From assembly GCA_902546615.1 (NCBI GenBank), contig CACCKE010000005.1, forward strand, positions 19 through 64,018: a DNA stretch of 64,000 nt. Direction: 5' to 3'. The position numbers were made by a program, and so were the translations under genes. The stretch comes from an uncultured Pelagibacteraceae bacterium. Lineage in GTDB: Bacteria; Pseudomonadota; Alphaproteobacteria; Pelagibacterales; AG-422-B15. Positions within the stretch are counted from its first letter, which is position 1. Each line of letters begins with the position of its first letter. Shown here piece after piece: positions 27,857 through 64,000 of the stretch. Under the pieces are notes generated by a model that did not search any database, was not told where the DNA came from, and saw only the letters and a program-made list of their open reading frames with translations.

Positions 27857-27858
27857 AT

Positions 27859-42989: not shown

Positions 42990-43679
42990 TTATTTATTGA
43001 GTTTATTTTCTATATTTTGCCAATCTTCCAGATCATCAATATCAATACTTTCACTGCGAGACATTTCAGAGAATAATATTTTACCTCCAAATAATCCATA
43101 ATTTAATAAATTTCTTTTGGTTATATAAATTGCACCATTTCGAGCATAAAAAGTTTTTTTATCTTGTCTTCTTAAAATTGGGTTCTCTTGTTCTATAAAA
43201 TCTTCTAAGTACTTTTTGTCAACTAATTTCATTACAGAATAAGGATTCATATTATGAGGCACCTTTTCTACACTTAACAAACTATCAGCGTCCTGGTCTT
43301 TCATAAATATTGTTAAAGCTTCATCAATATGATCAGATGTACATAAAGGACTTGTTGCCTGTAATGTAACGATGATATCAGGATTATAAATATTTTTTTC
43401 TTCAAGTAACTTTACCATCTCTTGAATTACTGGCAAAGTAGGAGTATCGTCTCTGGCTAGATCTTTAGATCTCATGAAAGGTACTTCTAGACCAATCTTA
43501 AGTCCAATGTCCTTAATCTCTTTATTTTCAGTAGACAAAAATACTCTATCAATAAATTTTGATCCTAAAGCTGCTTTGGCAATATACTCTATCAATGGTC
43601 TACCTTTGAGACTTTTAATATTCTTTCCAGGAATGCTTTTTGACCCACCTCTTGCAGGAATAATGGCCATAATTTTCAT
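42990..43679 (-). CDS. neuA: acylneuraminate (nonulosonate) cytidylyltransferase
   Basis: MAIIPARGGSKSIPGKNIK, LQATSPL and RRQD. Confidence 0.85.
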   Translation of the reverse strand: MKIMAIIPARGGSKSIPGKNIKSLKGRPLIEYIAKAALGSKFIDRVFLSTENKEIKDIGLKIGLEVPFMRSKDLARDDTPTLPVIQEMVKLLEEKNIYNPDIIVTLQATSPLCTSDHIDEALTIFMKDQDADSLLSVEKVPHNMNPYSVMKLVDKKYLEDFIEQENPILRRQDKKTFYARNGAIYITKRNLLNYGLFGGKILFSEMSRSESIDIDDLEDWQNIENKLNK

Positions 43680-43691
43680 TAGCTTTGGACC

Positions 43692-44840: not shown

Positions 44841-44869
44841 AGGTTTATATATCTCTTAATACAATTTAA

Positions 44870-45877
44870 TCACAGTAAATTATCGAATTTAATTTGATCA
44901 TTATATTTAATTGCTTTCTTTAATTTTTTCCCAATGACACTCTTATAATTAGCCGCAGAAATACCATTACCAGGCTTTTTAAATGCTAAATCTTCAAAAG
45001 TTATTATTTTGCCTTTATCTAAATTACCAGCAGCTACAATTGACTTTTCGAAAGTTTTTTTCATTTTAACTAATTTTTTTGATAATTTATTTTTATCTAT
45101 ATGAGAGTTCTTAATAATCTCTATATTTCGAATTTGATTTACTAAATTTTTAAATTCGTGAGGTTCCATAGAATTTTTTGCATCACTTCCATACATGTCT
45201 TTAGATAAAGTAATATGTTTTTCAATAACTACTGCACCTTCCATAACAGCAGCAATAGGAGCAGATATTCCATTTGTATGATCACTAAATCCAATATTAA
45301 GATTTTTATATTTTTCTTTAAACTCCGTTATGACATTAATACCGCTATATTTAAGATCACAAGGATACATTGAAGTACATTGCATTAGCGTCAGATTAAT
45401 CTTTTTATTCTTTTTAATAACTTTGATCGCATTATTTATTTCAATCCAGCTACTCATTCCTGTAGAAAGGTAAACTTTGTTAAATAGCTTTGAAATTCTC
45501 TCCAATAATGGAATATTTGTTACCTCGCCAGAAGGTACTTTAATTGCTTTAATGCCTAATTTTTTAAGCCTATCTACTGCTACAATTGAGAATGGGGAAT
45601 TTAAAAAATCTAAATTATATTTTTCTGCATATTTTTTTAATGATTTCCATTCTATATCAGAAAATGAAGTGCGCTTAAAATATTGCTCTCTACTTTCACT
45701 TTTAAAATATGGTGGGTTTGGAGCATTTGGAAGGCTTTCCTCATCAAATATATGCATTTGAAATTTCACTGCATCAGCTCCACAGTCAGCGGCAACTTCT
45801 ATAAATTTCTTTGCTAAACCAAGACTTCCATCATGGGTATTTCCTATTTCAGCAATTATATAAATTTTTTTAGTCAC
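44870..45877 (-). CDS. neuB: N-acetylneuraminate/legionaminate synthase
   Basis: IYIIAEIGNTHDGSLGLAKKFIEVAADCGADAVKFQMH, GFSDHT, and the C-terminal SAF-like IVAAGNLDKGKIITFEDLAFKKPGNGI. Confidence 0.9.
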   Translation of the reverse strand: MTKKIYIIAEIGNTHDGSLGLAKKFIEVAADCGADAVKFQMHIFDEESLPNAPNPPYFKSESREQYFKRTSFSDIEWKSLKKYAEKYNLDFLNSPFSIVAVDRLKKLGIKAIKVPSGEVTNIPLLERISKLFNKVYLSTGMSSWIEINNAIKVIKKNKKINLTLMQCTSMYPCDLKYSGINVITEFKEKYKNLNIGFSDHTNGISAPIAAVMEGAVVIEKHITLSKDMYGSDAKNSMEPHEFKNLVNQIRNIEIIKNSHIDKNKLSKKLVKMKKTFEKSIVAAGNLDKGKIITFEDLAFKKPGNGISAANYKSVIGKKLKKAIKYNDQIKFDNLL

Positions 45878-52252: not shown

Positions 52253-52960
52253 TTAAATTTTTTGCATATTGTTTGCTAAATTATAATTTTCAATTGTGCC
52301 TATATCTATTACTTTGCTTGAAATTTCATAAGTATATATTCTATCCATAAAATTTGGTATTACATCATTACTAAAATCAGAAACATTATGAAAATCATTT
52401 TTTAATATTCTTAAAAACTCTTTTGAAAGAATATAAATGGCAGCATTGGCTAAGTTTGAAGGAGGGTTATTTTTTTTTTCATAAAAATCGTATACTACTT
52501 TATCTTTATCTACCTTGACAACACCACAAGTTTCAGGATTGTTTGTCCGGAAAACAAGCATAGTTAACAAGCATTTTTTTGGTCTTTCTTTGTGAGCTTT
52601 ATGAAATAAATCAAAATCTATCGTGCAATAGTTATCACTATGCAGCATTAAAATATCTTCGTCATCATCTTCAATAAATGTATTAATGTTGTTAATTAAA
52701 GTTCCAGCTGTTCCTAGTAATTCATTTTCATATAATAGGTTAATCTTTTCTTTATACACGGTGTTATTAAAAAAAGATTTGAATCTTTCAGGTAAGTAAT
52801 GATAATTTATGAATAAGGGACCAAAATTAAATTTTAATAACATTTCAATCCAAATTTCTAATAACGGCTTACCATTTATAGTTAACAATGGTTTGGGAAT
52901 GTCATTAGTCAGCGGTCTTAATCTCTTTCCATATCCAGCTGATAGTAATAAAACTTTCAT
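52253..52960 (-). CDS. sugar-1-phosphate nucleotidyltransferase (HddC/RmlA-superfamily)
   Basis: MKVLLLSAGYGKRLRPLTNDIPKPLL (GxGxRL motif), 235 aa. 4-nt overlap with the upstream fusion gene. Confidence 0.8.
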   Translation of the reverse strand: MKVLLLSAGYGKRLRPLTNDIPKPLLTINGKPLLEIWIEMLLKFNFGPLFINYHYLPERFKSFFNNTVYKEKINLLYENELLGTAGTLINNINTFIEDDDEDILMLHSDNYCTIDFDLFHKAHKERPKKCLLTMLVFRTNNPETCGVVKVDKDKVVYDFYEKKNNPPSNLANAAIYILSKEFLRILKNDFHNVSDFSNDVIPNFMDRIYTYEISSKVIDIGTIENYNLANNMQKI

Positions 52961-54420
52961 ATGGCTTGTTTTTTTATAGCTCTTATTAATTGTTTTTGAT
53001 CTATTGGCAGGTTACCTAATTGTCCAACTTGTATGGATGCCATGAACATACCAAGAAGACTAGAAAGCCATATATTTGAGCCGCAGGCCAACGCAAGAGA
53101 ACTGGCAACAAGCATAGAGTCTCCTGCACCGGCAATATCTCTTGGATTATTATTAAAAGAAGGGACTTTATCAGTGACAATTTTAGACCCACTTTTTTTT
53201 GCCAAATTTATAAGAAGTCCGTCTGCACCAAGTTTCATTAAAATGTATTGTACTTTTGACCTTTCAAAAAGCTTATCAGCTATAACAACAAGTCCATCCT
53301 GCTGGTTTTTAACACTTATCCTTGCTTCTTTTTCTGTAGGAGTGATTAAGTTAACATCTTTATATTTTCCTATATCACCAATTTGTGAAGAACTTTGGCA
53401 ATCTGCAGTCATAATGCATTTATTTTTTTTTCCTAAATTTATTAACCTCCCTAATAACTCATTAGGTAGGCACCCATAATTAAAATCAGAAAAAATTATT
53501 AAATCTATATTTTTAATCATACTCTTTAAGGCTAGAAAAATTTTATTTTGTGTTTCTATTGAAGCTGAAGTTTGCTGTATTTTCGATACTTTTAATAATG
53601 TCTTATTTTCACATCTAAATCTTTGCTTAAGAGTTGTTGGACGCGATTCTTCGATTATAAGATTGTATTTAACATCATTATTATCTAATTCATGAGTAGC
53701 AAAATTATAATTTTCATCTTGACCTGCAATAGATATTAAATTTACTTTTGCTCCAAGTTTAGATGCATGAGCAGCTACAATTCCTGCTCCGCCAATAAAT
53801 CTTTTTTCTTCTTGGGGCGAAATAACCATCACTGGCTCTTCACTTGACATGCCTAATGGTTGACAAGAAATATATTCATCAATTATTAAATCGCCGACAA
53901 CGGCAATTTTTAAGTTTTTAAATTTATGAATGGTGTTAATAAGGTCATCTTTTGTTAAACCATGTCTCTCTAAAAAGTTATCCGAAATTTTACTATTGTC
54001 TAAGCTATTAAGATCAAGTTCTTTTCTTATTAATAGTGAAGATGAGTAACCTGTATCTCCAGAGTTATAAACCAACTTTCCTCCGTATTTGGAAACAATT
54101 TTTTCTTCCGAATTGAAAAGAGATTCATGCTCTTTACCTTTAACAATAATGTCTGGTTTAATTTTTAGTATTGTGTCACTAAGAGATTTTTCTATTAAAG
54201 ATACTTCATCAACTAGTGAACAATTTTTGATAGAATCAATTCTTGATATTTCATCAATATAAGCTTTTGTACCTAATAGGTTATCAGAAAAAACTCCAAC
54301 AAATAATTTTCCACCGAGTGATTTAGCATATTTAAATAGTCTTAGATGGCCAGCATGAAGAATATTAAAATTTCCTGAGATAAAAATTCTTTGAATTTTT
54401 TTTTTATTTTTCATAATCAA
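52957..54420 (-). CDS. bifunctional cytidylyltransferase-like / PfkB sugar kinase fusion (HldE/RfaE-like domains in reversed order)
   Basis: The N-terminal part has IFISGNFNILHAGHLRLFKYA (HxGH nucleotidyltransferase). The C-terminal part has KIAVVGDLIIDEYISCQPLGMSSEEPVMV (RfaE domain I-like) and DIAGAGDSM (PfkB). Confidence 0.8.
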   Translation of the reverse strand: MIMKNKKKIQRIFISGNFNILHAGHLRLFKYAKSLGGKLFVGVFSDNLLGTKAYIDEISRIDSIKNCSLVDEVSLIEKSLSDTILKIKPDIIVKGKEHESLFNSEEKIVSKYGGKLVYNSGDTGYSSSLLIRKELDLNSLDNSKISDNFLERHGLTKDDLINTIHKFKNLKIAVVGDLIIDEYISCQPLGMSSEEPVMVISPQEEKRFIGGAGIVAAHASKLGAKVNLISIAGQDENYNFATHELDNNDVKYNLIIEESRPTTLKQRFRCENKTLLKVSKIQQTSASIETQNKIFLALKSMIKNIDLIIFSDFNYGCLPNELLGRLINLGKKNKCIMTADCQSSSQIGDIGKYKDVNLITPTEKEARISVKNQQDGLVVIADKLFERSKVQYILMKLGADGLLINLAKKSGSKIVTDKVPSFNNNPRDIAGAGDSMLVASSLALACGSNIWLSSLLGMFMASIQVGQLGNLPIDQKQLIRAIKKQAI

Positions 54421-54516
54421 TAAGCTTTGTATTTTTTATGTTAATGCATTATACATATTAATGATGTCATCTAAAAATCTAATAAATTTAGATTTAATTT
54501 TTTGTAAGTTAATACA
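54421..54516. promoter_or_regulatory. divergent intergenic spacer between the kinase/nucleotidyltransferase operon (-) and the transketolase-led operon (+); presumed promoters
   Basis: A 96-nt non-coding gap at a divergent junction. The downstream gene appears to use a TTG start at 54517. Confidence 0.35.
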
Positions 54517-55347
54517 TTGGATAAGTATAATAAACTAAAAAAAACCTCTTATAAGCTAAGAAAAGATATTTTTACATCTATTTATAAGGGTGGAGGCGGT
54601 CATGTAGGAGGTTCATTTTCAATAATTGATGCTCTCACATATTTATATTCTGAAATATTAAATATAGACCCAAAAAATCCAGAAGACATTAATAGAGATA
54701 GATTAATCTTTTCAAAAGGACATTCATGCCAAGCGTTATATTGGGTTTTATGTCACTTTGGTTTCTACAGTAAGTCATACTTAGAAGATTACGGTAAAGA
54801 TGGAGCTCGTTTTGCTGGACATCCTGAATTTGAAAAAGCTCCTGGTATAGAAATATCTAGTGGTTCATTGGGACATGGTCCTTCAATAGGAGCTGGAATT
54901 GCACATGCATGTGTACTTAATAATCAAGAGTCTAAAATATTTGTTATTGTAGGCGATGGAGAGACTAATGAAGGATCAGTGTGGGAAGCAATTTTGTGTG
55001 CATCGCAACTAAAACTAAATAATTTTTACTTAGTGATTGATAATAATCAATTTGAGTCATTGGATAAAACTAGCAATATTCTTGGGATCGAACCAATAGA
55101 CGAAAAGCTTAAATCTTTTGGGTTCGATGTAATTAGATGTAATGGTCATGATTTTGAAGAATTAGATTTATCATTCAAAAAAATTATTAATTTAGATAGC
55201 GAAAAACCAAAAGCAATTATATTAGATACTATAAAAGCTCATGGAATTAGTTTTACTACTGGTATAACAAAGTGGCATTATAGGTCCCCGACGGAGAAAG
55301 AATTAAAAATAGGTTTAGAAGAATTGGATAAAATAATAAATGCGTAA
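54517..55347 (+). CDS. transketolase, N-terminal (TPP-binding) subunit
   Basis: GGGGHVGGSFSIIDALTYLY, and the TPP motif VGDGETNEGSVWEAILCA. TTG start. Confidence 0.85.
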   Translation: MDKYNKLKKTSYKLRKDIFTSIYKGGGGHVGGSFSIIDALTYLYSEILNIDPKNPEDINRDRLIFSKGHSCQALYWVLCHFGFYSKSYLEDYGKDGARFAGHPEFEKAPGIEISSGSLGHGPSIGAGIAHACVLNNQESKIFVIVGDGETNEGSVWEAILCASQLKLNNFYLVIDNNQFESLDKTSNILGIEPIDEKLKSFGFDVIRCNGHDFEELDLSFKKIINLDSEKPKAIILDTIKAHGISFTTGITKWHYRSPTEKELKIGLEELDKIINA

Positions 55348-56260
55348 TTCACTAAGAGATGCTCTTTTAGAAATTAAAAAACCTGGAGATAAAATATATT
55401 TAATTGTTGGAGATATTGGATTTGGAGTATTTGAGGAATATTCGAAAAAATTTAAAGAAGATTATCTAAACATAGGTATATGTGAGTCTAACATGATAGG
55501 ATTTTCCTCTGGAATGTCGATGAATGGATTTTTGCCGATTGTATATACCATTGTTCCTTTTTTAACAATGAGACCATTTGAACAAATTAGAATTGACTTA
55601 GCTCTTCATAAAAGAAAAGTAATCCTTGTGGGTGTCGGAGGAGGATTAGCGTATGGTAATTTGGGCCCTACTCATCATAGTTTTGAGGATTTAACATTAA
55701 TGACCATTCTCCCAAATTTTGCTGTTTTCTCGCCTTCTCAACCTTCAGAAAGTAAAGAGGCTCTCACAGCAGCGCTTAATCATAATGGCCCAAGCTATAT
55801 AAGACTCGGTAAAAATGGAGAACCTGATCTATCTAAATTTATGCTTAAAGGTAATTCAAATCTTAAAAATTATTGCTATGATTATAAGAAGGCCGATGTA
55901 ACCATTCTAACGTATGGAGCTATAACTTATGAATGTATTATTGCTGCAAAAGAATTAATCAAAGATAAAGTAAATGTTGCTGTTGTCTCATTTTTTAAGA
56001 TAAAACCGCTTCCAAAAGATATATTAGAAGTATGTTTTGAAAGTAAAGCTTCATTAATTGTTGAAGAACATACTACATATCATTCGATTGGCACACACAT
56101 AGCTTCTAAAATCATGCAAAGAGGTTTAAGAGGAAAGCTAAAGATATTAGGAATAAATGATAAATTTACTGAAGAGGTAGGAAGTAGAGACTTTCTATTA
56201 AAAGCTCATAAAATAGATTCTAATTCAATTGTTAAAACAATTAGAGAAATGATTACATGA
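55340..56260 (+). CDS. transketolase, C-terminal (pyrimidine-binding + C-terminal domain) subunit
   Basis: GICESNMIGFSSGMSMNG and GPTHHSFEDLTLM. 8-nt overlap with the N-subunit gene. Confidence 0.85.
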   Translation: MRNSLRDALLEIKKPGDKIYLIVGDIGFGVFEEYSKKFKEDYLNIGICESNMIGFSSGMSMNGFLPIVYTIVPFLTMRPFEQIRIDLALHKRKVILVGVGGGLAYGNLGPTHHSFEDLTLMTILPNFAVFSPSQPSESKEALTAALNHNGPSYIRLGKNGEPDLSKFMLKGNSNLKNYCYDYKKADVTILTYGAITYECIIAAKELIKDKVNVAVVSFFKIKPLPKDILEVCFESKASLIVEEHTTYHSIGTHIASKIMQRGLRGKLKILGINDKFTEEVGSRDFLLKAHKIDSNSIVKTIREMIT

Positions 56261-57246
56261 AAAGGATATTAATAACAGGAGGAGGGGGATATGTTGGTTC
56301 TGCGCTAGTACCCCATTTAATTAATAAAGGTTATCACGTCACTGTATTAGATTGGTTTTTATATAAAAAAAATATTTTCGATCAATACAGTAAAGATAAG
56401 TTTAATAAGATTGTTGGCGATTTAAGAAATCTCGAAGATTTAAAAAAATCACTTAGTTCAGTTGATGCTGTAATTCATTTAGCATGCATATCAAATGATC
56501 CTTCAGCTGAGCTTAACCCAAAATTATCAATAGATATTAATCAAAATGCATTTAAATTACTCTTAGAAGAATCTAGAAAAGCAAAACTAAAAAGATTTAT
56601 TTTTGCATCTTCATCAAGTATTTACGGTATATCTGACTCACCTCAAGTTTATGAAGATCACCCTAGAGTTCCTGTTTCCCTCTACAATATATCAAAGGCG
56701 TGGTGTGAAGATCTGCTATACAATGAATATAAAGATATTCCATTTACAATTATTAGACCTGCAACTATTTGTGGTTATGCTGAAAGACTAAGATTAGACC
56801 TTGCAGTAAACTTACTTACCTCACACTGCATTCAAAACAAAAAAATAAGCATATTTGGAGGTGATCAATACAGACCTAACCTTCATATAAAAGATATGGT
56901 AAACTTATATTCATACTTTTTAGAAATAGAAGAAGAAAAAGTACTACACCAAGTATTTAATGCTTCATACAATAATTTTACTATTAATGAAATAGCTGAA
57001 GAAATAATTAATGAACTTAAGCCCAAGATAGGCAATATCTTAGTTGAAAATATTAAATCTAACGACCCAAGATCTTATCGAGTAAATACAGATAAGCTGA
57101 ATTCTATTGGATTTAAACCAAAATATACAATTAAACATGCTTCAAGAGATTTACTCGAAGCTTTCAATAGTGGAAAGGTAGAAGAATCTGTAACTAGTCC
57201 AATATATAACAATGTTTTAATGATGAAATCTCAAAATATATCATGA
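56257..57246 (+). CDS. NAD-dependent epimerase/dehydratase (extended SDR)
   Basis: ILITGGGGYVGSAL, ASSSSIYG and YNISKAWCE. ATGA overlap with the upstream gene. Confidence 0.75.
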   Translation: MKRILITGGGGYVGSALVPHLINKGYHVTVLDWFLYKKNIFDQYSKDKFNKIVGDLRNLEDLKKSLSSVDAVIHLACISNDPSAELNPKLSIDINQNAFKLLLEESRKAKLKRFIFASSSSIYGISDSPQVYEDHPRVPVSLYNISKAWCEDLLYNEYKDIPFTIIRPATICGYAERLRLDLAVNLLTSHCIQNKKISIFGGDQYRPNLHIKDMVNLYSYFLEIEEEKVLHQVFNASYNNFTINEIAEEIINELKPKIGNILVENIKSNDPRSYRVNTDKLNSIGFKPKYTIKHASRDLLEAFNSGKVEESVTSPIYNNVLMMKSQNIS

Positions 57247-58118
57247 AAAGAAAAAATGTTCTGATTACTGGGGCCAATAGTCCATTTGGTAAATATATTT
57301 GTTCATATTTAAAAAATAAAAATAATTTTAAAATATACGGTATCTCCAGAAGAGATGAAAATTTAGAAGAATTTGATGAGGTGTTCATTTTTGATATTAG
57401 AAAAAATATTATTCCAATTGAGTGTGAATTTGATTATATATTCCATGTTGCCTCTGCTGTTCCTAGCAAATATAATATTGACCAGGATTTTTTTGACATA
57501 AATGTTAATGGGTCTTTATCTCTTTTTAGATCAATCAAAATTTCTAATAAAGCTGTTATAATTAATATGTCATCAACTTCAGTTTATGATGATCCTGATA
57601 ATGAATTCATAAATGAAGAATCAAAAAAAGAGGTAAAAAAAGCTTACGGCCTATCTAAATTAACTTTTGAAAATGAATTACATAAACTTTTTTTTAACAA
57701 AGAATGCATGCTTATTACCTTGAGAATCCCTGTGTTACTTGTTCCTGAAATTAAGGGAAATTTTATCTCTTCATGGGCAAGTAAAATTATTAATGGTCAA
57801 CAAATAACTCTTTATAATCCCAACTCACTACTAAATGCAGTAATCAGTGGAAAATCTATTATTCAGTATGCTTTATATGCGGATTACCAAAATAAAAAAA
57901 TTACAATGAATTTAGCAAGTAAAAATGCAATTAAAATAATTGAGGTTGCTAAAATAATGTCTAAGATATTAGATAAGAAACTAATTTATATTGAAGAGAA
58001 AAATGATAGGTTAAATCAGCAAATTGTAACAAATTTAGCTGAAGATAATGGTTTTAAGATCCCAGATTTAAAAACAATAATTAAGGATTTTACCTCCACT
58101 TGTAAAAACTATGTTTAG
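57243..58118 (+). CDS. SDR-family sugar-nucleotide reductase/epimerase (divergent)
   Basis: VLITGANSPFGKY, MSSTSVY and YGLSKLTFE. ATGA overlap with the upstream gene. Confidence 0.6.
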   Translation: MKRKNVLITGANSPFGKYICSYLKNKNNFKIYGISRRDENLEEFDEVFIFDIRKNIIPIECEFDYIFHVASAVPSKYNIDQDFFDINVNGSLSLFRSIKISNKAVIINMSSTSVYDDPDNEFINEESKKEVKKAYGLSKLTFENELHKLFFNKECMLITLRIPVLLVPEIKGNFISSWASKIINGQQITLYNPNSLLNAVISGKSIIQYALYADYQNKKITMNLASKNAIKIIEVAKIMSKILDKKLIYIEEKNDRLNQQIVTNLAEDNGFKIPDLKTIIKDFTSTCKNYV

Positions 58119-58905
58119 TAAATACATTGAAGATCAATCTTCTGATGCCATCGAGTTAATTAATAAAGGATACAAAATAATTAACGTCGAAAACCTGGAA
58201 CTCCTAAGCAATATTCTAGCTCAGTTTAAGAATTACTTAAAAGAACAGAATAATATTGTAGTAAAAGACTTATCAGAATTACATAATCATTTAGATATAA
58301 AAAATCTAAACTCTATACGTCATGGTTTTTATGAAAAATTAAATAAGGAAAGCTCTTTTTCTAAAACATACCTGGAATTAGCCTTTAAAACTATAAACGA
58401 TGTTGTTGGATCTGAATTAGCAGCAAATAGATCTGTAAACTTTTCAATACAAATACCTAATGACACAACTTCAAAACTTGGTATTCACAGTGATTGTTTT
58501 AGCGGAGAAAGTGAATTCCAAATTAATTTATGGGTGCCCCTAACAGATGCGAGAGATACAAACTCCATGTTTATTTTTAATCCAGATTTTTCAAGAGACG
58601 TCATTAATAATATTAGTAAATTTGAGAAATTAGGTATTGAAAATTTATTAAATGAGCATGAAGATCAGTATGAGTTTGTAAATTTAAGTTTTGGAGAAGC
58701 ATTAGTATTTACACCTACTTGTCTTCATGGCAATGTAATAAATACTACTCAAAAAACTAGAATTTCTTTTAATTGTAGATACAAAAATTTATTTTCTCCA
58801 TATTGTAAAAATGAAGAAAATGAAAAGAAATTAGGAACATTTTATATTCCTATTACTCCTAAAGCCGCAACAATTATTGGTTTAAAAAATAAAATTAAAT
58901 ACTAA
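58111..58905 (+). CDS. putative Fe(II)/2-oxoglutarate oxygenase (carbohydrate-cluster type)
   Basis: Candidate facial triad GIHSDCF (HxD) plus the distal TCLHGN, and an R in RISFNCRY. Assignment is tentative. Confidence 0.5.
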   Translation: MFSKYIEDQSSDAIELINKGYKIINVENLELLSNILAQFKNYLKEQNNIVVKDLSELHNHLDIKNLNSIRHGFYEKLNKESSFSKTYLELAFKTINDVVGSELAANRSVNFSIQIPNDTTSKLGIHSDCFSGESEFQINLWVPLTDARDTNSMFIFNPDFSRDVINNISKFEKLGIENLLNEHEDQYEFVNLSFGEALVFTPTCLHGNVINTTQKTRISFNCRYKNLFSPYCKNEENEKKLGTFYIPITPKAATIIGLKNKIKY

Positions 58906-59315
58906 TGAAATATCTCAATGGATATGTCACCGTAAGACGTTTTAAAGGATTTGCTTTACCTGTTCCAGTACAAAATAGATTACTTAGAGAGTATGCAAAT
59001 AAATTAGATATGGTTTATGTCTTACCTCAATGTGAAATGGTGACAAATAAAAATTATATGATGTTGTTTGAAACATTAGATAAAATGAAAGAAAATAGTG
59101 ATTTAGGAATGTGCAGTGTTTTTATGTTTCCTGAAGACCAAAAGAAAGCTATGGATATTATGGAAATAATAATAAAAAAAAATATTACATTACATTTTGT
59201 TTTCAATGAAAGCTCTGTTAAACCTAATGAAATAAAGGAGTATTACATTAATAGTAATATCGATACTATTTTAGGAATACAGAATAAAGATAGTTTTATA
59301 AGCCTTTTTGAATAA
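58905..59315 (+). CDS. uncharacterised 136-aa protein (possibly the LIC12192-like 'sporadic carbohydrate cluster' family)
   Basis: Operon-embedded: TAATG junction with the upstream gene. GYVTVRRFKGFALPVPVQNRLLREYA at the N-terminus. The family recollection is unverified. Confidence 0.45.
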   Translation: MKYLNGYVTVRRFKGFALPVPVQNRLLREYANKLDMVYVLPQCEMVTNKNYMMLFETLDKMKENSDLGMCSVFMFPEDQKKAMDIMEIIIKKNITLHFVFNESSVKPNEIKEYYINSNIDTILGIQNKDSFISLFE

Positions 59316-59335
59316 AAATTTTAAAAAAAATTAAA

Positions 59336-59527
59336 ATGAATTGTATCAATTGCAAAACTAAATTCAAAAAAATTGATTTAGATAATAACCAGATAAAATG
59401 CGTGTACTGTGAGAGTATTTACTTCATAATTGAAAAAATTCCAGTAATGCTCAATAAAGAAAATGATTTCTATAATTACAATAGAATATTTAAAAGATAT
59501 ATCGGTATGAAAAATGAAACGTCTTAG
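59336..59527 (+). CDS. Trm112-like zinc-ribbon protein (63 aa)
   Basis: CINC...CVYC four-Cys ribbon followed by YFIIEKIPVML, matching the Trm112/UPF0434 pattern. Its 3' end overlaps the next methyltransferase gene by 14 nt. Confidence 0.6.
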   Translation: MNCINCKTKFKKIDLDNNQIKCVYCESIYFIIEKIPVMLNKENDFYNYNRIFKRYIGMKNETS

Positions 59528-60176
59528 TCTCAATTTTAATGAAAAAAGAGAAATTAAGTCTCATGAGACAAATGATATATCTCCTATGGATTGGATGAAA
59601 ATTTGGAAGGTAGATGATACATATTTTGATAGTGATAGAAAATTTGGCTATGGTGGGTATAAATATGACGGAAGATGGAAAGACGTTGTTGAACAATTGA
59701 TCCTAAAATTTAACCTAAATAAGAACTCAAACCTACTTGATCTTGGTTGTGCAAAAGGCTATTTGGTTAATGATTTCAATAATAATGCTAATGTAGGATC
59801 AGCAAGTGGAGTAGATATAAGCATATACGCTCTTCTAGAGGGATACAAAGAAAATATTAATGGAAATCTTTATTGTGCAAATTTTACTCATCTACCATTT
59901 GAAAATAAAGAATTTGAAATAGTATTTTGTAAAGATAGCTTACATAATATTCTTCTAAAAAAAGAAGTAGAAAATTCTTTACGGGAAATAAATAGAGTTG
60001 GCAAAATATCTTGGATAAGAGTTGGGGCATATAAGTCAAACCATCAAAAAAAAATTATTGACAATTGGGCTACTTTTGCGACAACTTATTTGCATGTTGA
60101 TGAATGGTTAGAACTTTTTGATAAAGTAAACTACGATGGTTACTATGACTGGTTCCATCCATCAGAGGAAGTATAA
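59514..60176 (+). CDS. class I SAM-dependent methyltransferase
   Basis: Motif I LLDLGCAKGYL, GVDIS and FEIVFCKDSLHN. Confidence 0.7.
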   Translation: MKRLSLNFNEKREIKSHETNDISPMDWMKIWKVDDTYFDSDRKFGYGGYKYDGRWKDVVEQLILKFNLNKNSNLLDLGCAKGYLVNDFNNNANVGSASGVDISIYALLEGYKENINGNLYCANFTHLPFENKEFEIVFCKDSLHNILLKKEVENSLREINRVGKISWIRVGAYKSNHQKKIIDNWATFATTYLHVDEWLELFDKVNYDGYYDWFHPSEEV

Positions 60177-60178
60177 GC

Positions 60179-60814
60179 TTGACTACACTATTTTTTGGAA
60201 CAACCGGTGGATGTTTAGATGCTTTCTATTTATTTAAAGAATTATATCCAGATGATGCTGATATGGCATTCTTATCTGATAGCCACCGTGTAAACGATAT
60301 AGTTTGTGGAGTCAAAATAGTAGGTGGGTTTAATGATATAAAAAACTCGCAATTTAAAAATTCTAATTTTGTTTTTCAGTGTGGCTCGGTAACTAACCAT
60401 ATCAATAGAAATTTTTGGTTTGAGTTGGCCATCAGAAATGGCATGAAACCTGTAAAGCTTGTATCAAAATTTGCTTATGTTCATGAAACTGCTGTTGTAG
60501 GCTTTGGTTCAATAATTTATCCAGGGGTAAAAATAATGGCTAACGTTAAAATTGGATCAAACTGTATTATTTTACCAAATACTGTAATAAATCATGATAG
60601 CTTGATAGAAGACTACTCAATTATAAATAGCTCATGTGTAATCAATGGAAACGTTAATATCGGAAATAAATCCTACATAGGTTCAATGTCCTCAATTAAA
60701 GAAAAAATTAATATTACTCCAAAAACTACAATTGGTATGTCTTCCTCAGTATTATCAGATATAAAAGAACCAGGTATTTATTTTGGCTCTCCAGCAAAAA
60801 AGAATAAAAGTTAA
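60179..60814 (+). CDS. sugar N-/O-acyltransferase, hexapeptide-repeat (PglD/NeuD family)
   Basis: N-terminal Rossmann-like half, then hexapeptide repeats (VGFGSIIYPGVKIMANVKIGSNCIILPNTVINHDSLI...). TTG start. Confidence 0.75.
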   Translation: MTTLFFGTTGGCLDAFYLFKELYPDDADMAFLSDSHRVNDIVCGVKIVGGFNDIKNSQFKNSNFVFQCGSVTNHINRNFWFELAIRNGMKPVKLVSKFAYVHETAVVGFGSIIYPGVKIMANVKIGSNCIILPNTVINHDSLIEDYSIINSSCVINGNVNIGNKSYIGSMSSIKEKINITPKTTIGMSSSVLSDIKEPGIYFGSPAKKNKS

Positions 60815-60818
60815 ATTT

Positions 60819-62009
60819 TTATTTTAAATTAGGATTTATATCATCAATCTTTTGCCATTTCTCAATAGGTACTGGATGATGGTTTTCAAAACCCTCTTTT
60901 ACTATTCGTTTTAGCTCAAATGCTTGCTCAATACAGTCATCTATATCAACTAAATATCTGTAACTACCTGCCCTCCCTAATGAAAAAACTCCGTCTGGCA
61001 TCAGTTTATGATATTCTCTAGCAATCAACATTTGTTCTTTCATCGGTACTGGATAATGGCGACCATTTTTTGAAGGAACTTCCATGCCTATCAAAGAATT
61101 TTTGTCTACATGCTGTGTGAATTTTTTATATTCAACGAGCCTCGTGTGTTTTTCTTTATTCGCATAATACAAGAAATAGACGTGATCTGGAAATACAAAT
61201 TCAGACGGAAAAACCATAAGATGAATATCTCTTCCAATATATGGAAGTTCGCCAAGACAATTATTAAATAAAATATCTGGTGATATAGTACTTATGATTA
61301 AATCGTAAGTATATTTTTCATCATCAATATAAACAGATTTATTTGGTATATCAAAACTCTGGATATTTGTTTTTAATTTAACTGAACATTTATCTACTAT
61401 ACTGTCAAAAAATTTATTGTAACCGTCCTTTGCTATAGGATAAGCAGACATGAGTGTATCATGAAATGCTGCTCTGGGGCCTTCTTGAATTTTTACACCT
61501 TTAGGAGACCATTTAAAAGTATCAATTTGATTTGCGTTACTAACTTGCCACATTTTTTCAGTATAGTTTTTTATTATTTTTTTATATAATGTAGGTCCTA
61601 TAGATCTTATCCAATATTCTTCAAAATCTTTGGCGTGCTCTACACCAGATGCATTTTCTAACTCTGATAATATTTTATCTGAGTCTGGCATAGAACGAAC
61701 ATCATCCATATGAATAGGAAAATTATAAAAGTTATTATCTTGCTCTACATAACTTAAAAATTGGTGATCCCCACAATCTCGGAGTGGCACTATTGAGTTA
61801 AGATAGTTATATATTTCGATGTTTTTTGTAATAAAATGTCGTGGACCAAAAGTATAAGGATGGCCACCATAGTAATGAGTCCTTACTCCTGCCCCAAGTT
61901 GATTTGCATTATCGACAAGAGTTATGTTCCAACCCCCTATCTCATTTAATTTATGAACAGATGCACAGCCTGCGGGACCTCCTCCTATAATTAAAGCTTT
62001 TTTACTCAT
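60819..62009 (-). CDS. glf: UDP-galactopyranose mutase (FAD-dependent)
   Basis: MSKKALIIGGGPAGCAS dinucleotide motif, YTEKMWQ and GRAGSYRYLVDIDD. The start is set at ATG 62009, not the ORF-track 62042, because of the upstream small ORF. Confidence 0.8.
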   Translation of the reverse strand: MSKKALIIGGGPAGCASVHKLNEIGGWNITLVDNANQLGAGVRTHYYGGHPYTFGPRHFITKNIEIYNYLNSIVPLRDCGDHQFLSYVEQDNNFYNFPIHMDDVRSMPDSDKILSELENASGVEHAKDFEEYWIRSIGPTLYKKIIKNYTEKMWQVSNANQIDTFKWSPKGVKIQEGPRAAFHDTLMSAYPIAKDGYNKFFDSIVDKCSVKLKTNIQSFDIPNKSVYIDDEKYTYDLIISTISPDILFNNCLGELPYIGRDIHLMVFPSEFVFPDHVYFLYYANKEKHTRLVEYKKFTQHVDKNSLIGMEVPSKNGRHYPVPMKEQMLIAREYHKLMPDGVFSLGRAGSYRYLVDIDDCIEQAFELKRIVKEGFENHHPVPIEKWQKIDDINPNLK

Positions 62010-62013
62010 TATC

Positions 62014-62166
62014 CTAGAAGATAGTATAGATAAATGGTGCAATTATAGAACTTTCACCAAGTATTATTAAAAAACCAAAAATAACTGAAAAAATAATTAT
62101 AGGAATTAACCAAAACTTTTTTCGCTCAATTGCAAAGCTCCATAAATCTGATATTAATTCTTTCAT
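62014..62166 (-). CDS. small (50-aa) single-TM protein, SxtK/DUF5989-like; not in the supplied ORF track
   Basis: Hand translation: MKELISDLWSFAIERKKFWLIPIIIFSVIFGFLIILGESSIIAPFIYTIF*. ATG at 62166, TAG at 62016..62014. It sits 3 nt after the upstream stop and 4 nt before the glf start. Confidence 0.6.
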   Translation of the reverse strand: MKELISDLWSFAIERKKFWLIPIIIFSVIFGFLIILGESSIIAPFIYTIF

Positions 62167-62169
62167 CCC

Positions 62170-62406
62170 TTAAAATGGTCTTTCATAATCTTTAATTGTT
62201 TTTACTATACTTTGTTTAACATCGCTTTGTTTATAGTATGTTTGAACATTTTTATCAAAACCTAAGAAATTACTTTTTTTTAGTATTTTTCTTAATATAC
62301 CAATGGGGATAAATATAAATATAAATAAAATTAACATAAGAATAGTTGTATTAACAACATTTAGAAAAGAAGATATTTTTTTTAAGTTTATATATATTAA
62401 ATTCAT
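62170..62406 (-). CDS. small (78-aa) membrane protein, possibly SxtJ-like
   Basis: One TM (ILMLILFIFIFIPIGIL) followed by a basic, conserved-looking tail LRKILKKSNFLGFDKNVQTYYKQ. It starts 2 nt after the carbamoyltransferase stop. Confidence 0.5.
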   Translation of the reverse strand: MNLIYINLKKISSFLNVVNTTILMLILFIFIFIPIGILRKILKKSNFLGFDKNVQTYYKQSDVKQSIVKTIKDYERPF

Positions 62407-62408
62407 GA

Positions 62409-64000
62409 TTAATCAGGGTTAATATTACTATAATCTTTTTTGAACGATTCAATTTTACTACTGTTCTGCCATAGTTTATCAAGAAAAATATTTTCTAATA
62501 CTAAAATATTCATACCTGTTTTCATAAAACACTCATAAGCTTCTTTAGGATTGCATACGATGGGTTCTCCTCTTACATTAAAAGAAGTATTTACAAGAAT
62601 TGGACAGTCTGTAATTTCTTCAAAATGAGACAGTAAACTATGGAGCTTATAGTTTTGATCCTTTGTAACAGTTTGAATTCTGGCACTATAATCAACATGT
62701 GTAACGGCGGGTATTTTTGATATTTTTATACTTAGTTTTTTAAACCCCGAGATATTCTTATTATTTATAATGTTTACTTTCTTTTCATCAGTTACTTCAG
62801 AAACAATTAACATGTAAGGACTTTCTATATTTAATTTAAACCAATCTGTAAGTTTCTCATATTTAATAACTGGAGCAAAAGGTCTAAATGACTCTCGATT
62901 TTTTATTTTAATATTCATTAAATGTTGCATATCTTTATTAAGAGGACTTCCAATTATAGATCTATTTCCAAGTGCGCGGGGGCCGAACTCCATCCTTCCT
63001 TGAAACCATCCAACAACACTGTCATTTTTTATCTCTAATGCTACTCTTTTAAAAATCTCTTTTTCAGTAAGTTCTCTATAATTTGCACCAACTAAGTCTA
63101 GGTAATTCTTTATTTCTTCATTGCTATATTTATTTCCCAAGTAAGAATATTTCATTTTGTCTTTATTGCTTATTTCTCTCTTTTTGCCCAAATACTCATA
63201 CCATGCAAGAAGACTAGCACCCAATGACCCCCCTGCATCTCCGGCGGCAGGCTGTATCCAGATATTTTTAAATTTTCCTTTGTTAACAATCTTGCCGTTT
63301 AAAACACAATTAAGAGCTACACCTCCCGCTAAACATAAATTATTTATTTCAAATTCTTCATATAATTTGTCTAAAATTTTCAAAACAATTTCCTCCAAAA
63401 CAACTTGAATAGATTTAGCAAGATCCATTTCCTTTTGTGTAATCTCTGTTTCAGGTTTTCTTGGTTTACCGCCGAAAAGATTATCAAATTTTTTACTTGT
63501 CATTTTCAATCCTGTGGCAAAATCAAAATAACTCATATCAAGCCTAAAAGAGCCATCATCTTTAATATCAATCAGATTATTTTTGATATCATTTACATAA
63601 GTAGCATTGCCATAAGGGGCCAAACCCATTAACTTGTATTCACCTGAATTGACTTTAAAACCTGCATAATACGTAAATGCTGAATATAATAATCCTAAAC
63701 TATGTGGGAATTCTAAAGATCGAATTTTCTTAATCGTATTTTTTTTACCAACCCAAATACTGCTTGTATCCCACTCTCCAACACCATCTAATGTTAATAT
63801 TAATGCTTCCTCAAAAGGACTTGGGAAAAACGCAGATGCAGCGTGAGATTTATGATGATCACTAAATAGCAGATTTGGTAACTTATTATTATCTTTTTTA
63901 TGAGCAATTTTTTTGAGTTCCTTAATAATATTTTGTTTAGTAAATAATTTATTTTTTATCCAAATCGGTAAGGCTCTTGCAAATGAAGAAAAGCCTCTAG
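62409..64000 (-). CDS. carbamoyltransferase, NodU/CmcH family; 5' end beyond the window
   Basis: My hand translation found no in-frame stop from 63630 to 64000 (...DHHKSHAASAFFPSPFEEALILTLDGVGEWDTSSIWVG...PHSLGLLYSAFTYYAGFKVNSGEYKLMGLAPYG...). Further motifs: LAGGVALNCV, QPAAGDAGGSLGA and NTSFNVRGEPIV. Confidence 0.85.
   Translation of the reverse strand, partial: RGFSSFARALPIWIKNKLFTKQNIIKELKKIAHKKDNNKLPNLLFSDHHKSHAASAFFPSPFEEALILTLDGVGEWDTSSIWVGKKNTIKKIRSLEFPHSLGLLYSAFTYYAGFKVNSGEYKLMGLAPYGNATYVNDIKNNLIDIKDDGSFRLDMSYFDFATGLKMTSKKFDNLFGGKPRKPETEITQKEMDLAKSIQVVLEEIVLKILDKLYEEFEINNLCLAGGVALNCVLNGKIVNKGKFKNIWIQPAAGDAGGSLGASLLAWYEYLGKKREISNKDKMKYSYLGNKYSNEEIKNYLDLVGANYRELTEKEIFKRVALEIKNDSVVGWFQGRMEFGPRALGNRSIIGSPLNKDMQHLMNIKIKNRESFRPFAPVIKYEKLTDWFKLNIESPYMLIVSEVTDEKKVNIINNKNISGFKKLSIKISKIPAVTHVDYSARIQTVTKDQNYKLHSLLSHFEEITDCPILVNTSFNVRGEPIVCNPKEAYECFMKTGMNILVLENIFLDKLWQNSSKIESFKKDYSNINPD

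Follow-up and report, generated by a model that had tools for sequence, protein, structure and literature searches.

A widely conserved marine gene set for an unusual cell-surface sugar, centred on a non-standard split transketolase

E1 alpha/beta enzymes (alphaKADH2) add acetyl C2 branches to keto-sugars, as established by knockouts and in vitro work (PMC12247030). For the hydroxyacetyl branches of miharamycin and amipurimycin, split transketolases (TKs) are the proposed enzymes; a 2025 review credits split-gene TKs with keto-sugar branching by proposal only, each of them from a Streptomyces antibiotic cluster, and acceptance of a ketone is still unproven for any TK (PMC12247030). We found no paper that describes a TK in any cell-surface glycan pathway, in agreement with an earlier note on this DNA, which knew of no characterised O-antigen pathway using a TK pair. 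Our search also returned no paper on the NCBI “sporadic carbohydrate cluster” families TIGR04324 and TIGR04323. Here, we describe a real and widely conserved set of biochemically uncharacterised genes that abundant marine bacteria carry for the synthesis of an unusual cell-surface sugar. The non-standard split TK at its centre probably has no part in central metabolism and instead attaches a two-carbon unit to a sugar.

The locus lies in the window, the whole 64,000-nt stretch of uncultured Pelagibacteraceae DNA that was analysed, and its features are summarized in Table 1. The genes were present where previously placed, and the coordinates bear out the 96-nt divergent spacer, the plus-strand overlaps of 8, 4, 4, 8, 1, and 14 nt and the gaps of 20 and 2 nt. 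The spacer becomes 102 nt if TKN starts at the ATG two codons downstream, which is the gene caller's choice on an identical SAG contig. A promoter scan of it gave 60 sites against 67 expected, the AT-rich DNA making such a scan uninformative. The earlier note counted ten genes and nine junctions in the plus-strand operon; there are nine and eight, and the third short spacer listed in the note is absent, the next gene being on the minus strand. The minus-strand operon had been given as two genes, which overlap by 4 nt; the unit extends past them into a glycosyltransferase, an ABC exporter, and a TviB-like dehydrogenase, with junctions that are 41-nt or overlapping. The module as first drawn was also too narrow, since it omitted the GLF mutase homologue, the GmhA-like isomerase, and the linked glycosyltransferase.

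Table 1. Coordinates of the module and its linked genes, with the match or motif supporting each assignment
Feature	Position	Strand	Match
Candidate dedicated glycosyltransferase, 411 aa	50976-52211	-	TIGR04372 domain, 39.7 bits
Nucleotidyltransferase (sugar-1-phosphate), 235 aa	52253-52960	-	NTP_transferase PF00483, 119.6 bits
Cytidylyltransferase-like/PfkB kinase fusion (CTase-PfkB), 487 aa	52957-54420	-	CTP_transf_like + PfkB
Divergent intergenic spacer, 96 nt, 17% GC	54421-54516
TKN, TK-like subunit N (ThDP/PP domain), 276 aa	54517-55347	+	PF00456, 122.6 bits
TKC, TK-like subunit C (Pyr + C-terminal domains), 306 aa	55340-56260	+	PF02779, 109.7 bits; PF02780, 62.3 bits
Extended SDR (SDR329), 329 aa	56257-57246	+	PF01370, 127.8 bits
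Second SDR, 291 aa	57243-58118	+	PF01370, 73 bits
Fe(II)/2-oxoglutarate oxygenase, 264 aa	58111-58905	+	TIGR04324
LIC12192-family protein, 136 aa	58905-59315	+	TIGR04323
CxxC...CxxC zinc ribbon, 63 aa	59336-59527	+	motif pattern
Class I SAM methyltransferase, 220 aa	59514-60176	+	PF08241, 45.4 bits
Hexapeptide acyltransferase, NeuD/PglD-like, 211 aa	60179-60814	+	TIGR03570, 139.7 bits
GLF-domain flavoenzyme, 407 aa	60819-62042	-	PF03275, 119.6 bits
GmhA-like SIS isomerase, 187 aa	42405-42968	-	PF13580, 75 bits

About 20 marine loci carry the module; they come from Pelagibacteraceae, Prochlorococcus, and a Legionellales MAG. The TK pair is accompanied by the oxygenase and 136-aa genes in 14 distinct loci, most of which also have the GLF gene, SDR329, the methyltransferase, and CTase-PfkB. 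The conserved set often includes a GmhA-like SIS isomerase too, which co-occurs with TK in 9 of the 14. Thus, linkage of the pair to the downstream tailoring genes, which the earlier note allowed might be conserved in no other genome, is conserved in 14 independent loci, with the gene order shuffled from one to the next. Two loci, L009 and L021, are of a different type: a pyruvate-dehydrogenase-type E1 alpha/beta pair and a Zn-ADH occupy the TK slot, adjoining orthologues of SDR329, the oxygenase, the 136-aa protein, and the methyltransferase. L021 also has orthologues of CTase-PfkB and the nucleotidyltransferase, L009 retains the GLF mutase, and no SIS gene was found in the visible DNA of either. 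A further variant, L019, has an HpcH aldolase and a HAD protein, with the oxygenase, 136-aa protein, and methyltransferase but no TK.

Pfam detects all three transketolase domains in TKN and TKC. The TPP motif noted previously, GDGETNEGSVWEA, was confirmed in TKN, whose best PDB match is the N chain of a split TK (6yak, 1.6e-55). TKN keeps H29, H69, H102, H254, and the GDGE...N Mg site, all invariant in 9 other aligned cluster-linked TKN subunits. Because these His and Mg ligands, the cofactor Glu, and the His equivalent to H481 are kept, the pair looks catalytically competent. TKC retains E49, H112, R2, and K158; the last two belong to the four canonical phosphate ligands. In canonical TKs, a His binds the phosphate and an Asp reads the acceptor C2 hydroxyl. 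Three TKC positions are substituted (human TK numbering): S345 to G29, H416 to G100, and D424 to L108, and the same changes are present in 10 cluster-linked copies. Among the 150 nearest cluster representatives, 146 have Gly at the His416 position and only 2 retain the acceptor-binding Asp, which Leu or Ala replaces across cluster copies. The acceptor pocket is remodelled, and this exchange of bulky polar for small or apolar residues fits a bulkier acceptor other than a canonical sugar phosphate.

The best PDB match of SDR329 is full length, to 6vo6/6vo8 (1.3e-38), which we take to be C. jejuni Cj1427, a GDP-D-glycero-D-manno-heptose C4 dehydrogenase that releases the 4-keto sugar. It carries the motif SSSSIYG...YNISK and no dehydratase Asp/Glu, and is a candidate NDP-sugar C4 oxidoreductase. 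Its orthologues (38-48% identity) adjoin the ThDP enzyme in TK-type and E1-type loci alike. The 291-aa SDR, a candidate ketoreductase or epimerase, has weak PDB matches to UDP-GlcNAc 4-epimerase and GDP-6-deoxy-D-lyxo-4-hexulose reductase and has homologues (26-34% identity) in most loci.

The oxygenase scores 264.3 bits against TIGR04324 (cut-off 150) and the 136-aa protein 113.5 bits against TIGR04323 (cut-off 55), so the family resemblance proposed in the earlier note held up in the HMM run. The expected HxD...H motif of an Fe/2OG oxygenase is present as H126-x-D128...H206, and H126, D128, H206, and R217 are invariant in 20 homologues. Foldseek with the AF2 model of the oxygenase (pLDDT 90.7) returned PhyH-like oxygenases such as SptF, SyrB2, PtlH, HygX, and EvdO1 (E ~1e-9). 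The 136-aa gene lies directly downstream of the oxygenase gene in every locus examined, and its product is fused to the methyltransferase in L009. The AF2 model of this protein (pLDDT 86.6) suggests a resolvase-like alpha/beta fold, with weak likeness in Foldseek to serine-recombinase catalytic domains (E ~1e-3, TM 0.5-0.66).

Methyltransferase homologues (30-45% identity) occur in 12 loci. The zinc-ribbon gene overlaps the methyltransferase gene by 14 nt, a syntenic zinc ribbon precedes the orthologous methyltransferase in L012, and the gene is also called on Tara scaffold L024; the ribbon is possibly a partner of the methyltransferase. It gave no significant HMM match, only a weak one to the PyrI_C zinc domain, so the label “Trm112-like” draws no HMM support, although the CxxC...CxxC...IPVML pattern is compatible with it. 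The acyltransferase, called PglD/NeuD-type in the earlier note, resembles NeuD/PglB/VioB but falls under the cut-off of 160.8 bits; its homologues occur only in L012 and L015, and it is accessory, not core.

Based on the observed gene content, family memberships, conserved linkage, and active-site changes, we infer all of the substrates and the step order of a pathway. We tentatively read the region as an instance of the “sporadic carbohydrate cluster,” in which an NDP-heptose-like sugar is oxidised, hydroxyacetyl-branched by TK, then tailored and ring-contracted. Synthesis of the NDP-heptose-like sugar would fall to the GmhA-like isomerase together with the kinase domain of CTase-PfkB and either of the two nucleotidyltransferases, and SDR329 would oxidise this sugar to a keto-sugar. 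With hydroxypyruvate or a ketose phosphate as ketol donor, the TK-like pair would place a C2 unit, hydroxyacetyl (glycolaldehyde), on the carbonyl, giving a C-branched sugar whose keto group the 291-aa SDR would reduce. Hydroxylation by the oxygenase and its 136-aa partner, methylation by the methyltransferase with the zinc ribbon, and contraction to a furanose by the GLF homologue would follow. The neighbouring glycosyltransferase would then install this nucleotide-activated, heavily tailored higher-carbon sugar in a surface glycan.

Transfer onto an NDP-keto-sugar was one of two roles raised in the earlier note, and we favour it because an E1 alpha/beta pair fills the TK slot in two syntenic loci and because SDR329, encoded beside the pair, is similar to a heptose C4 dehydrogenase. 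The other role, formation of sedoheptulose-7-P, is disfavoured because the cell already makes this compound and the ordinary sugar-phosphate-binding residues are lost. Several points speak against branching. TKs normally take aldehydes, whereas the proposed acceptor is a ketone; a tertiary C4 branch is awkward with GLF ring contraction; and the proposal gives no account of two nucleotidyltransferases. The co-occurrence of TK with a ketose/aldose isomerase would suit a sugar-phosphate route equally, and the HpcH aldolase and HAD protein of L019 resemble backbone assembly.

Such a route is the strongest competitor, though we consider it the less probable one. Here an unusual aldose phosphate (hexose-6-P, or a 2-deoxy or 2-amino acceptor) would receive a C2 ketol unit from the TK-like pair, and the GmhA-like isomerase would turn the resulting heptulose or octulose phosphate, itself non-standard, into an aldose. 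PfkB and the nucleotidyltransferases would activate it, and the SDRs, oxygenase, methyltransferase, and GLF homologue would tailor it. The acceptor would be a natural one for a TK, the retained R2 and K158 could still bind phosphate, and the Asp-to-Leu change could mean an acceptor without a C2 hydroxyl. The presence of an isomerase in TK-type loci and of Zn-ADH in E1-type loci also agrees, since an isomerase suits a hydroxymethyl ketone and a reductase a methyl ketone. However, the E1-type loci would then yield a 1-deoxy-ketose and, by reduction, a polyol without an anomeric carbon, despite which L021 keeps the kinase/nucleotidyltransferase pair and L009 the GLF mutase. Merely accommodating a longer acceptor would not require the His and Ser phosphate ligands to go, and the route does not explain why the ThDP enzyme sits so close to an extended SDR of the NDP-sugar type.

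It is unlikely that the TK, isomerase, and kinase serve one sugar while the oxygenase, 136-aa protein, methyltransferase, SDRs, and GLF homologue tailor another, as neighbours only because islands pack many sugar pathways. The window is indeed a dense glycan island in which independent pathways lie side by side, among them those for CDP-glucose, nonulosonic acid, and an acetamidino modification, and both L019 and the shuffled gene order would agree with such a mosaic. Against it, the association outlasts extensive rearrangement in 14 loci and several phyla-level lineages, the genes here are translationally coupled via 1-14 nt overlaps, and where TK is absent another C-C bond-forming enzyme fills its place.

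Finally, an ordinary pentose-phosphate TK, housekeeping or spare, landed in the island by chance is very unlikely: despite the Pfam assignments, an active split TK as nearest solved structure, and a 2025 paper reading an island-borne TK in Planktophila as pentose-phosphate enhancement (PMC12817590), the pair is unlike ordinary transketolase, as had been argued, in scoring far under the NCBIfam equivalog cut-off (217.6 and 132 bits against 488) and in its substituted substrate-site His and Asp throughout the clade, it is sporadic, island-borne, and always beside glycan genes, and the non-oxidative pentose phosphate pathway is reportedly encoded by a Fonsibacter genome whose hypervariable region has four partial TK genes (PMC6811365).

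The C2 branching of an NDP-keto-sugar that we prefer also draws on a linked heptose-type toolkit: the GmhA-like isomerase, two HldE-like domains, and an HddC-like nucleotidyltransferase, to which other loci add HAD and APH-like proteins. Every match to heptose-pathway equivalogs is under its curated cut-off, and no GmhB-type phosphatase was found within the window. The isomerase (TIGR00441 gmhA, 105.6 bits; cut-off 209.45) sits 10 kb from the operon, is 55.6% identical to an SIS gene within the L017 module, has homologues in L002, L008, L011, L014, L015, L022, and the P0052 contig, and is a probable pathway member. The nucleotidyltransferase best matches Arch_glmU (108), HddC (80.9), and MurU (80.3), all under cut-off, and its orthologues follow CTase-PfkB in L004 (44%), L021 (35%), and the P0052 contig. 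CTase-PfkB, with homologues (24-41% identity) in 11 related loci, has domains similar to those of HldE in reversed order (rfaE_dom_I, 187.6 bits, residues 164-482, cut-off 345; rfaE_dom_II, 59.3 bits, residues 6-133, cut-off 181.5). The glycosyltransferase, under its cut-off of 45 bits, has homologues beside the module in L004 and weaker ones in L003 and L005. The GLF flavoenzyme is the best-conserved module member (43-70% identity in 14 loci); it is an NDP-sugar pyranose/furanose mutase homologue, similar to UDP-galactopyranose mutase (UGM), that scores under the TIGR00031 cut-off (96.9 against 303.75 bits) and keeps the K. pneumoniae UGM residues Y155, T156, W160, R280, Y314, R343, Y349, and D351. 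The genuine split TK 6yaj, in contrast, keeps the very His and Asp that the cluster pair has lost.

Using an ORF map of the window, we reproduced the coordinates of a divergent module that an earlier note had proposed from the sequence alone (table below). On the minus strand, the nucleotidyltransferase gene and the gene for a cytidylyltransferase-PfkB fusion (CTase-PfkB) share 4 nt, and past these two genes the unit runs on into a glycosyltransferase, a PglK-like ABC exporter, and a TviB-like dehydrogenase. The divergent spacer is 96 nt long with a GC content of 17%, or 102 nt with the fusion start at an ATG two codons in, the start called on an identical SAG contig. On the plus strand, the gene order is TKN and TKC (the N and C subunit genes of a split transketolase-like pair), two SDRs, an oxygenase, a 136-aa protein, a 63-aa zinc ribbon, a methyltransferase, and a hexapeptide acyltransferase. 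This makes nine genes and eight junctions, where ten and nine had been counted; six junctions are overlaps (8, 4, 4, 8, 1, and 14 nt), and the only gaps are of 20 and 2 nt, so that the third short spacer described before is absent. The window has a GC content of about 27%, and nearly all of its genes lie on the minus strand. GC skew is negative across most of it and positive over the plus-strand block, a switch of sign that fits the changed coding strand. Promoter and terminator scans of the window, whose DNA is AT-rich, performed no better than on shuffled sequences, and Rfam and tRNA scans found no Rfam families or tRNAs across its 64 kb.

Positions of the module genes and of other features discussed in the text; L009, L019, L021, and L022 are related loci from the genome and metagenome scans
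Feature	Sequence	Coordinates	Strand	Size	Basis
Further independent sugar pathway	window	16357-18747			
SDR-like ORF	window	16916-18016			
Further independent sugar pathway	window	27098-28476			
Second PhyH-family Fe/2OG oxygenase	window	38109-38849			
GmhA-like SIS isomerase	window	42405-42968			
Nonulosonic-acid set	window	42990-45877			
Nucleotidyltransferase	window	52253-52960	minus	235 aa	ORF map
CTase-PfkB fusion	window	52957-54420	minus	487 aa	ORF map
Divergent spacer	window	54421-54516			
136-aa protein	window	58905-59315			
GLF homologue	window	60819-62042	minus		
DUF5989 mini-protein, hydrophobic ORF, and carbamoyltransferase	window	62014-64000			
E1 alpha/beta pair and zinc alcohol dehydrogenase	L009	5992-7992			
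136-aa family domain fused to SAM methyltransferase	L009	10743-11807		354 aa	
E1 alpha/beta pair and zinc alcohol dehydrogenase	L021	2339-4364			
HpcH/HpaI aldolase and HAD hydrolase	L019	5855-7289			
Broken SIS, CTase-PfkB, and TK genes	L022	11207-14806			

The split pair belongs to the transketolase (TK) family. Pfam places Transketolase_N in TKN and Transket_pyr with Transketolase_C in TKC, and TKN scores 122.6 bits against PF00456 versus 38 bits against E1_dh. Both subunits miss the canonical TK equivalog (NF004559), with 217.6 bits for TKN and 132 for TKC against a cut-off of 488. The nearest solved structure for both is the active split TK of Carboxydothermus hydrogenoformans, 6YAK/6YAJ (1.6e-55 and 1.1e-36). 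We mapped residues by alignment to this enzyme and to human TK, and found that the pair retains the GDGE...N Mg motif, H29, H69, H102, H254, the cofactor Glu (E49), and H112. The catalytic His and the Mg site of the N subunit are invariant across ten cluster-linked N subunits.

The substrate site of TKC is altered. Human Ser345, His416, and Asp424 are replaced by Gly29, Gly100, and Leu108, so that no canonical residue remains at these three positions. In TKs, Ser345 and His416 are part of the phosphate site, and Asp424 reads the C2 hydroxyl of the acceptor. Every full-length cluster-linked C subunit in the alignment (10 cluster copies) has the His-to-Gly and Asp-to-Leu changes. We searched 1.84 billion representatives in full with HMMER and obtained 906 relatives at E <= 1e-30; among the best 150 of these 906, the His position is Gly in 146, and the acceptor Asp is kept in 2, with Leu in 89 and Ala in 24. 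Judged by these alignments, the pair belongs to a large unnamed TK-like clade that keeps the ketol-transfer machinery and differs in its acceptor site.

The earlier note had likened the oxygenase and the 136-aa protein to the “sporadic carbohydrate cluster” TIGRFAMs, and NCBIfam bears this out. The oxygenase scores 264.3 bits with TIGR04324 (curated cut-off 150), and the 136-aa protein scores 113.5 bits with TIGR04323, the LIC12192 family (curated cut-off 55). Their genes overlap by 1 nt and are adjacent in every related locus with downstream DNA visible, the 136-aa gene always coming after that of the oxygenase. Both families were named by curators and are uncharacterised; searching the literature for their names, their accessions, and LIC12192 turned up no paper. 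The window is a new member of a named, uncharacterised gene cluster.

We scanned one genome per species with an alignment of oxygenase homologues, which yielded 16 loci, mostly in Pelagibacteraceae single-cell genomes, with one in Prochlorococcus and one in a Legionellales MAG. Metagenome contigs gave further loci, and the window proteins served as tblastn and blastp queries to identify homologues; six loci were too short to judge gene content. In 14 distinct loci, the TK pair accompanies the genes for the oxygenase and the 136-aa protein, so that its linkage to the downstream tailoring genes is conserved; absence of the linkage from other genomes had been named beforehand as evidence against the module, and this objection falls. 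The best-conserved partner is the GLF homologue, which is present in 14 loci with 43-70% identity. Orthologues of the 329-aa SDR that follows TKC (SDR329) are 38-48% identical and usually adjoin the ThDP enzyme, and most loci carry the methyltransferase, the second SDR, and the CTase-PfkB fusion. A GmhA-like SIS isomerase lies within the module in L017, L008, L022, and the P0052 contig, and the window copy, 10 kb away, is 55.6% identical. An HAD phosphatase-like protein and an APH-like kinase are extra in some loci. With these linked partners, the GLF homologue and the SIS isomerase among them, the module is larger than the boundaries first drawn around it.

Several further observations concern copies of the module. 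Contigs of up to 201 kb carry identical copies of four window proteins, the oxygenase and TKC among them. The identical oxygenase gene lies on the 201-kb CACIHI010000001.1 of single-cell genome GCA_902586415.1, and that contig ends inside the 136-aa gene. In metagenomic locus L022, the SIS, CTase-PfkB, and TK genes are each split into several short ORFs, either because this copy of the module is decaying or because a low-coverage assembly introduced frameshifts. A tblastn search with the oxygenase against plasmids and phages gave no match.

The position occupied by the TK pair is filled by other enzymes in three loci. L009 and L021 have a pyruvate-dehydrogenase-type E1 alpha/beta pair (E1_dh 195 bits) with a zinc alcohol dehydrogenase, adjoining orthologues of the SDR, the oxygenase, the 136-aa protein, and the methyltransferase. 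L009 has an extra TylC3-type C-methyltransferase domain, and L021 also has the orthologous CTase-PfkB and nucleotidyltransferase pair. Strict co-variation of the TK with the kinase/nucleotidyltransferase fusion is weakened, because in L021 it is the E1 pair that sits with the fusion. The slot in L019 holds an HpcH/HpaI aldolase and an HAD hydrolase. Together, these variants describe one tailoring cassette with three different C-C bond-forming enzymes. The TK-like clade is thereby tied to a defined cassette in which it is interchangeable with E1 alpha/beta enzymes, which are known branchers of keto-sugars.

The proteins which would supply the sugar are of heptose type and divergent. The CTase-PfkB fusion carries its domains in the reverse of the HldE order (kinase N-terminal, adenylyltransferase C-terminal), and its two HldE-type domains score 187.6 bits against an NCBIfam cut-off of 345 and 59.3 against 181.5. 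The window SIS protein scores 105.6 bits with the GmhA equivalog (cut-off 209.45) and is by this score a divergent relative rather than the equivalog. We sought a GmhB-type phosphatase in the partly annotated window with the HAD proteins of L017 and L019, and neither had a homologue there. The best solved relative of SDR329 is 6vo6/6vo8 (1.3e-38, full length), which we take to be Campylobacter jejuni Cj1427. Cj1427 oxidises GDP-D-glycero-D-manno-heptose at C4 and releases a keto-sugar, with recycling of NADH that depends on 2-oxoglutarate. SDR329 has the motif SSSSIYG...YNISK and lacks the dehydratase acid/base pair. The split TK adjoins an extended SDR, whose putative oxidase role is drawn from its similarity to 6vo6.

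The oxygenase is modeled with a pLDDT of 90.7 in a PhyH-like Fe/2OG fold, and its HxD...H triad and an Arg are invariant among its homologues, which argues for a hydroxylase-type enzyme; a halogenase, a reading raised by SyrB2 and CurA Hal among the Foldseek matches, was rejected because no residue of the HxD triad is missing. The window encodes a second, unrelated PhyH-family Fe/2OG oxygenase (95.7 bits), adjoining two proteins of 397 and 508 aa without a Pfam match. The model of the 136-aa protein (pLDDT 86.6) shows weak similarity to serine recombinase (resolvase) catalytic domains, and its family invariably has G6, Y7, G15, P19, Q23, N24, E44, L54, S71, and F98. We rejected a recombinase function because the family has no conserved nucleophile Ser near the N terminus and no DNA-binding domain; sugar metabolism may here have taken over a fold of resolvase type. 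In L009, its domain and the SAM methyltransferase are fused in one reading frame, a Rosetta-stone arrangement suggesting that the 136-aa protein has the methyltransferase as a partner in addition to the oxygenase. The simplest reading of this protein is an accessory or bridging subunit.

The 63-aa protein had been called Trm112-like; it has no Pfam or NCBIfam match except a weak one to the PyrI_C zinc domain, and fits Trm112 only by its CxxC...CxxC...IPVML pattern and its place upstream of the methyltransferase. A homology search with it gave one weak syntenic match only. The acyltransferase is NeuD/PglD-like, as suggested before, at a score under the cut-off for that type. The GLF homologue, encoded on the minus strand directly after the plus-strand block, contains a GLF domain (PF03275, 119.6 bits) and keeps most of the UGM substrate-binding residues (Y155, T156, W160, R280, Y314, R343, Y349, and D351), with the mobile-loop Arg ambiguous. 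It reaches 96.9 bits on the Glf equivalog (TIGR00031), far short of the cut-off of 303.75.

The most economical model, to which we give a little less than an even chance, is that the TK-like pair branches a keto-sugar made from a heptose-type NDP-sugar. A heptose-type toolkit (GmhA-like isomerase, PfkB kinase, and a nucleotidyltransferase) would make the NDP-sugar, which the Cj1427-like SDR would turn into a keto-sugar. The TK-like pair would add a hydroxyacetyl branch, and the E1 pair in the sister loci would add an acetyl branch. Reduction, hydroxylation, methylation, and a pyranose-to-furanose contraction would then follow, and the linked glycosyltransferase would transfer the finished sugar. 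The presence of two nucleotidyltransferases and the lack of a GmhB-type phosphatase in the window are not accounted for. More tentatively, and as something rather less likely than not, we propose that the clade with GGG...LGxTHH (Gly for His, Leu or Ala for Asp) consists of ketone-accepting TKs adding hydroxyacetyl branches to NDP-keto-heptoses, and that the product is a C-branched, methylated, nine-carbon furanose on marine cell surfaces.

The main alternative, less likely in our estimate, is that the TK acts at the sugar-phosphate stage, building an unusual ketose phosphate for the isomerase to convert. This would agree with the pairing of the TK with the SIS isomerase and of the E1 pair with the zinc alcohol dehydrogenase, with the usual preference of TKs for aldehyde acceptors, and with the aldolase in the TK slot of L019. 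We consider it improbable that the genes are a mosaic of unrelated pathways, and this reading, like the next, is disfavoured. That the pair is a housekeeping TK is contradicted by its active site, its scores, and its context, and is very improbable.

Other pathways are encoded in the same island. The nonulosonic-acid set adjoins the GmhA-like isomerase gene and comprises a PseF-like cytidylyltransferase (151 bits, under the cut-off of 205.7), a protein like the hydrolysing UDP-GlcNAc 2-epimerase, and NeuB. Two further independent sugar pathways are listed in the table; a glucose-1-P cytidylyltransferase (372.7 bits, above its cut-off) is accompanied by the SDR-like ORF and an RmlC-like protein, and a WbuZ/HisF-like and HisH pair points to acetamidino modification. 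Near the window end are a 50-aa DUF5989 mini-protein, a 78-aa hydrophobic ORF, and a NodU-like carbamoyltransferase. We considered and dropped a pseudogene for the latter: its frame runs off the window end, with the C-terminal 406 aa within the window.

Hypervariable glycan islands in SAR11 and Prochlorococcus are believed to influence how phages and grazers recognise these most abundant of marine bacteria, and to our knowledge almost none of the islands' sugars are known. If our proposal is true, SAR11, Prochlorococcus, and other marine bacteria would carry the nine-carbon furanose, and the pair would be the first TK in surface-glycan synthesis and a tractable system for TK ketone acceptance. 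Partial TK genes of uncertain function were reported in a Fonsibacter hypervariable region (PMC6811365), and a distinct TK in a Planktophila replacement island was ascribed to the pentose phosphate pathway (PMC12817590). Our alignments place such island-borne split TKs, earlier unexplained or ascribed in this way, in a large clade whose substrate site has been remodelled. Our analysis also offers a testable function for two orphan NCBIfam families, and may supply the first experimentally accessible ketone-accepting TK, an enzyme that enzymologists have called for (PMC12247030).

Our literature search for TKs tied to O-antigen, Leptospira rfb, cps/glf, or phosphoheptose isomerase plus mutase found nothing relevant. 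We compare the module here with the closest known systems. The oxygenase and the 136-aa protein of the window belong to the “sporadic carbohydrate cluster” families and are adjacent inside a carbohydrate biosynthesis island, whereas the definitions of TIGR04324 and TIGR04323 are silent on the TK, GLF, SDR, and kinase partners found here. Like NDP-heptose pathways (GmhA, HldE/HddA, GmhB, and HldC/HddC), including that of Cj1427, the module has a GmhA-like isomerase, both HldE-like domains, an HddC-like nucleotidyltransferase, and an SDR closest to 6vo6. Unlike them, every one of its matches is below the equivalog cut-off, and the L017 and L019 HAD proteins revealed no GmhB in the window. We know of no heptose pathway with a TK, a 2OG oxygenase, or a GLF of this clade. 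The GLF homologue largely shares the flavin, diphosphate, and uridine-binding residues of UDP-galactopyranose mutase (Glf), but it stands apart in its own module-linked clade.

The C. hydrogenoformans TK has the same split architecture, but keeps the Ser, His, and Asp where the window pair has Gly, Gly, and Leu. YerE-type enzymes branch keto-sugars in LPS pathways (PMC12247030). YerE (yersiniose A) and YerE-like lyases show how ThDP enzymes C-branch nucleotide-activated keto-sugars destined for surface glycans; however, YerE is a single polypeptide of the decarboxylase (acetolactate-synthase-like) superfamily with 2-keto acid donors, and its homology with the TK pair does not go beyond the cofactor fold. 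The alphaKADH2 enzymes (E1 alpha/beta-type) add acetyl C2 branches to keto-sugars, as supported by knockout, feeding, and in vitro evidence (PMC12247030). Those of aldgarose and kibdelomycin (KbDH) are also two-subunit ThDP enzymes that place a C2 branch on NDP-keto-sugars, and the branch ketone is often reduced or methylated afterwards; they use pyruvate, whereas the donor of the TK-family window pair would be a ketol or hydroxypyruvate. For split-gene TKs, a hydroxyacetyl branch on a keto-sugar, giving a C-branched high-carbon sugar, has been proposed, not shown, in miharamycin and amipurimycin biosynthesis, 13 further candidates were predicted, all from Streptomyces, and ketone acceptor use or a branched product is yet to be shown for any TK (PMC12247030). 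Compared by description, the miharamycin and amipurimycin TKs are likewise encoded by two genes beside an oxidoreductase thought to form the keto-sugar, but they belong to actinomycete antibiotic clusters, and the window pair to surface-glycan islands of marine Alphaproteobacteria and cyanobacteria. ThDP-dependent sugar branching is known chemistry; what would be new here is its performance by a TK-family enzyme, in a surface-glycan island, in marine oligotrophs.
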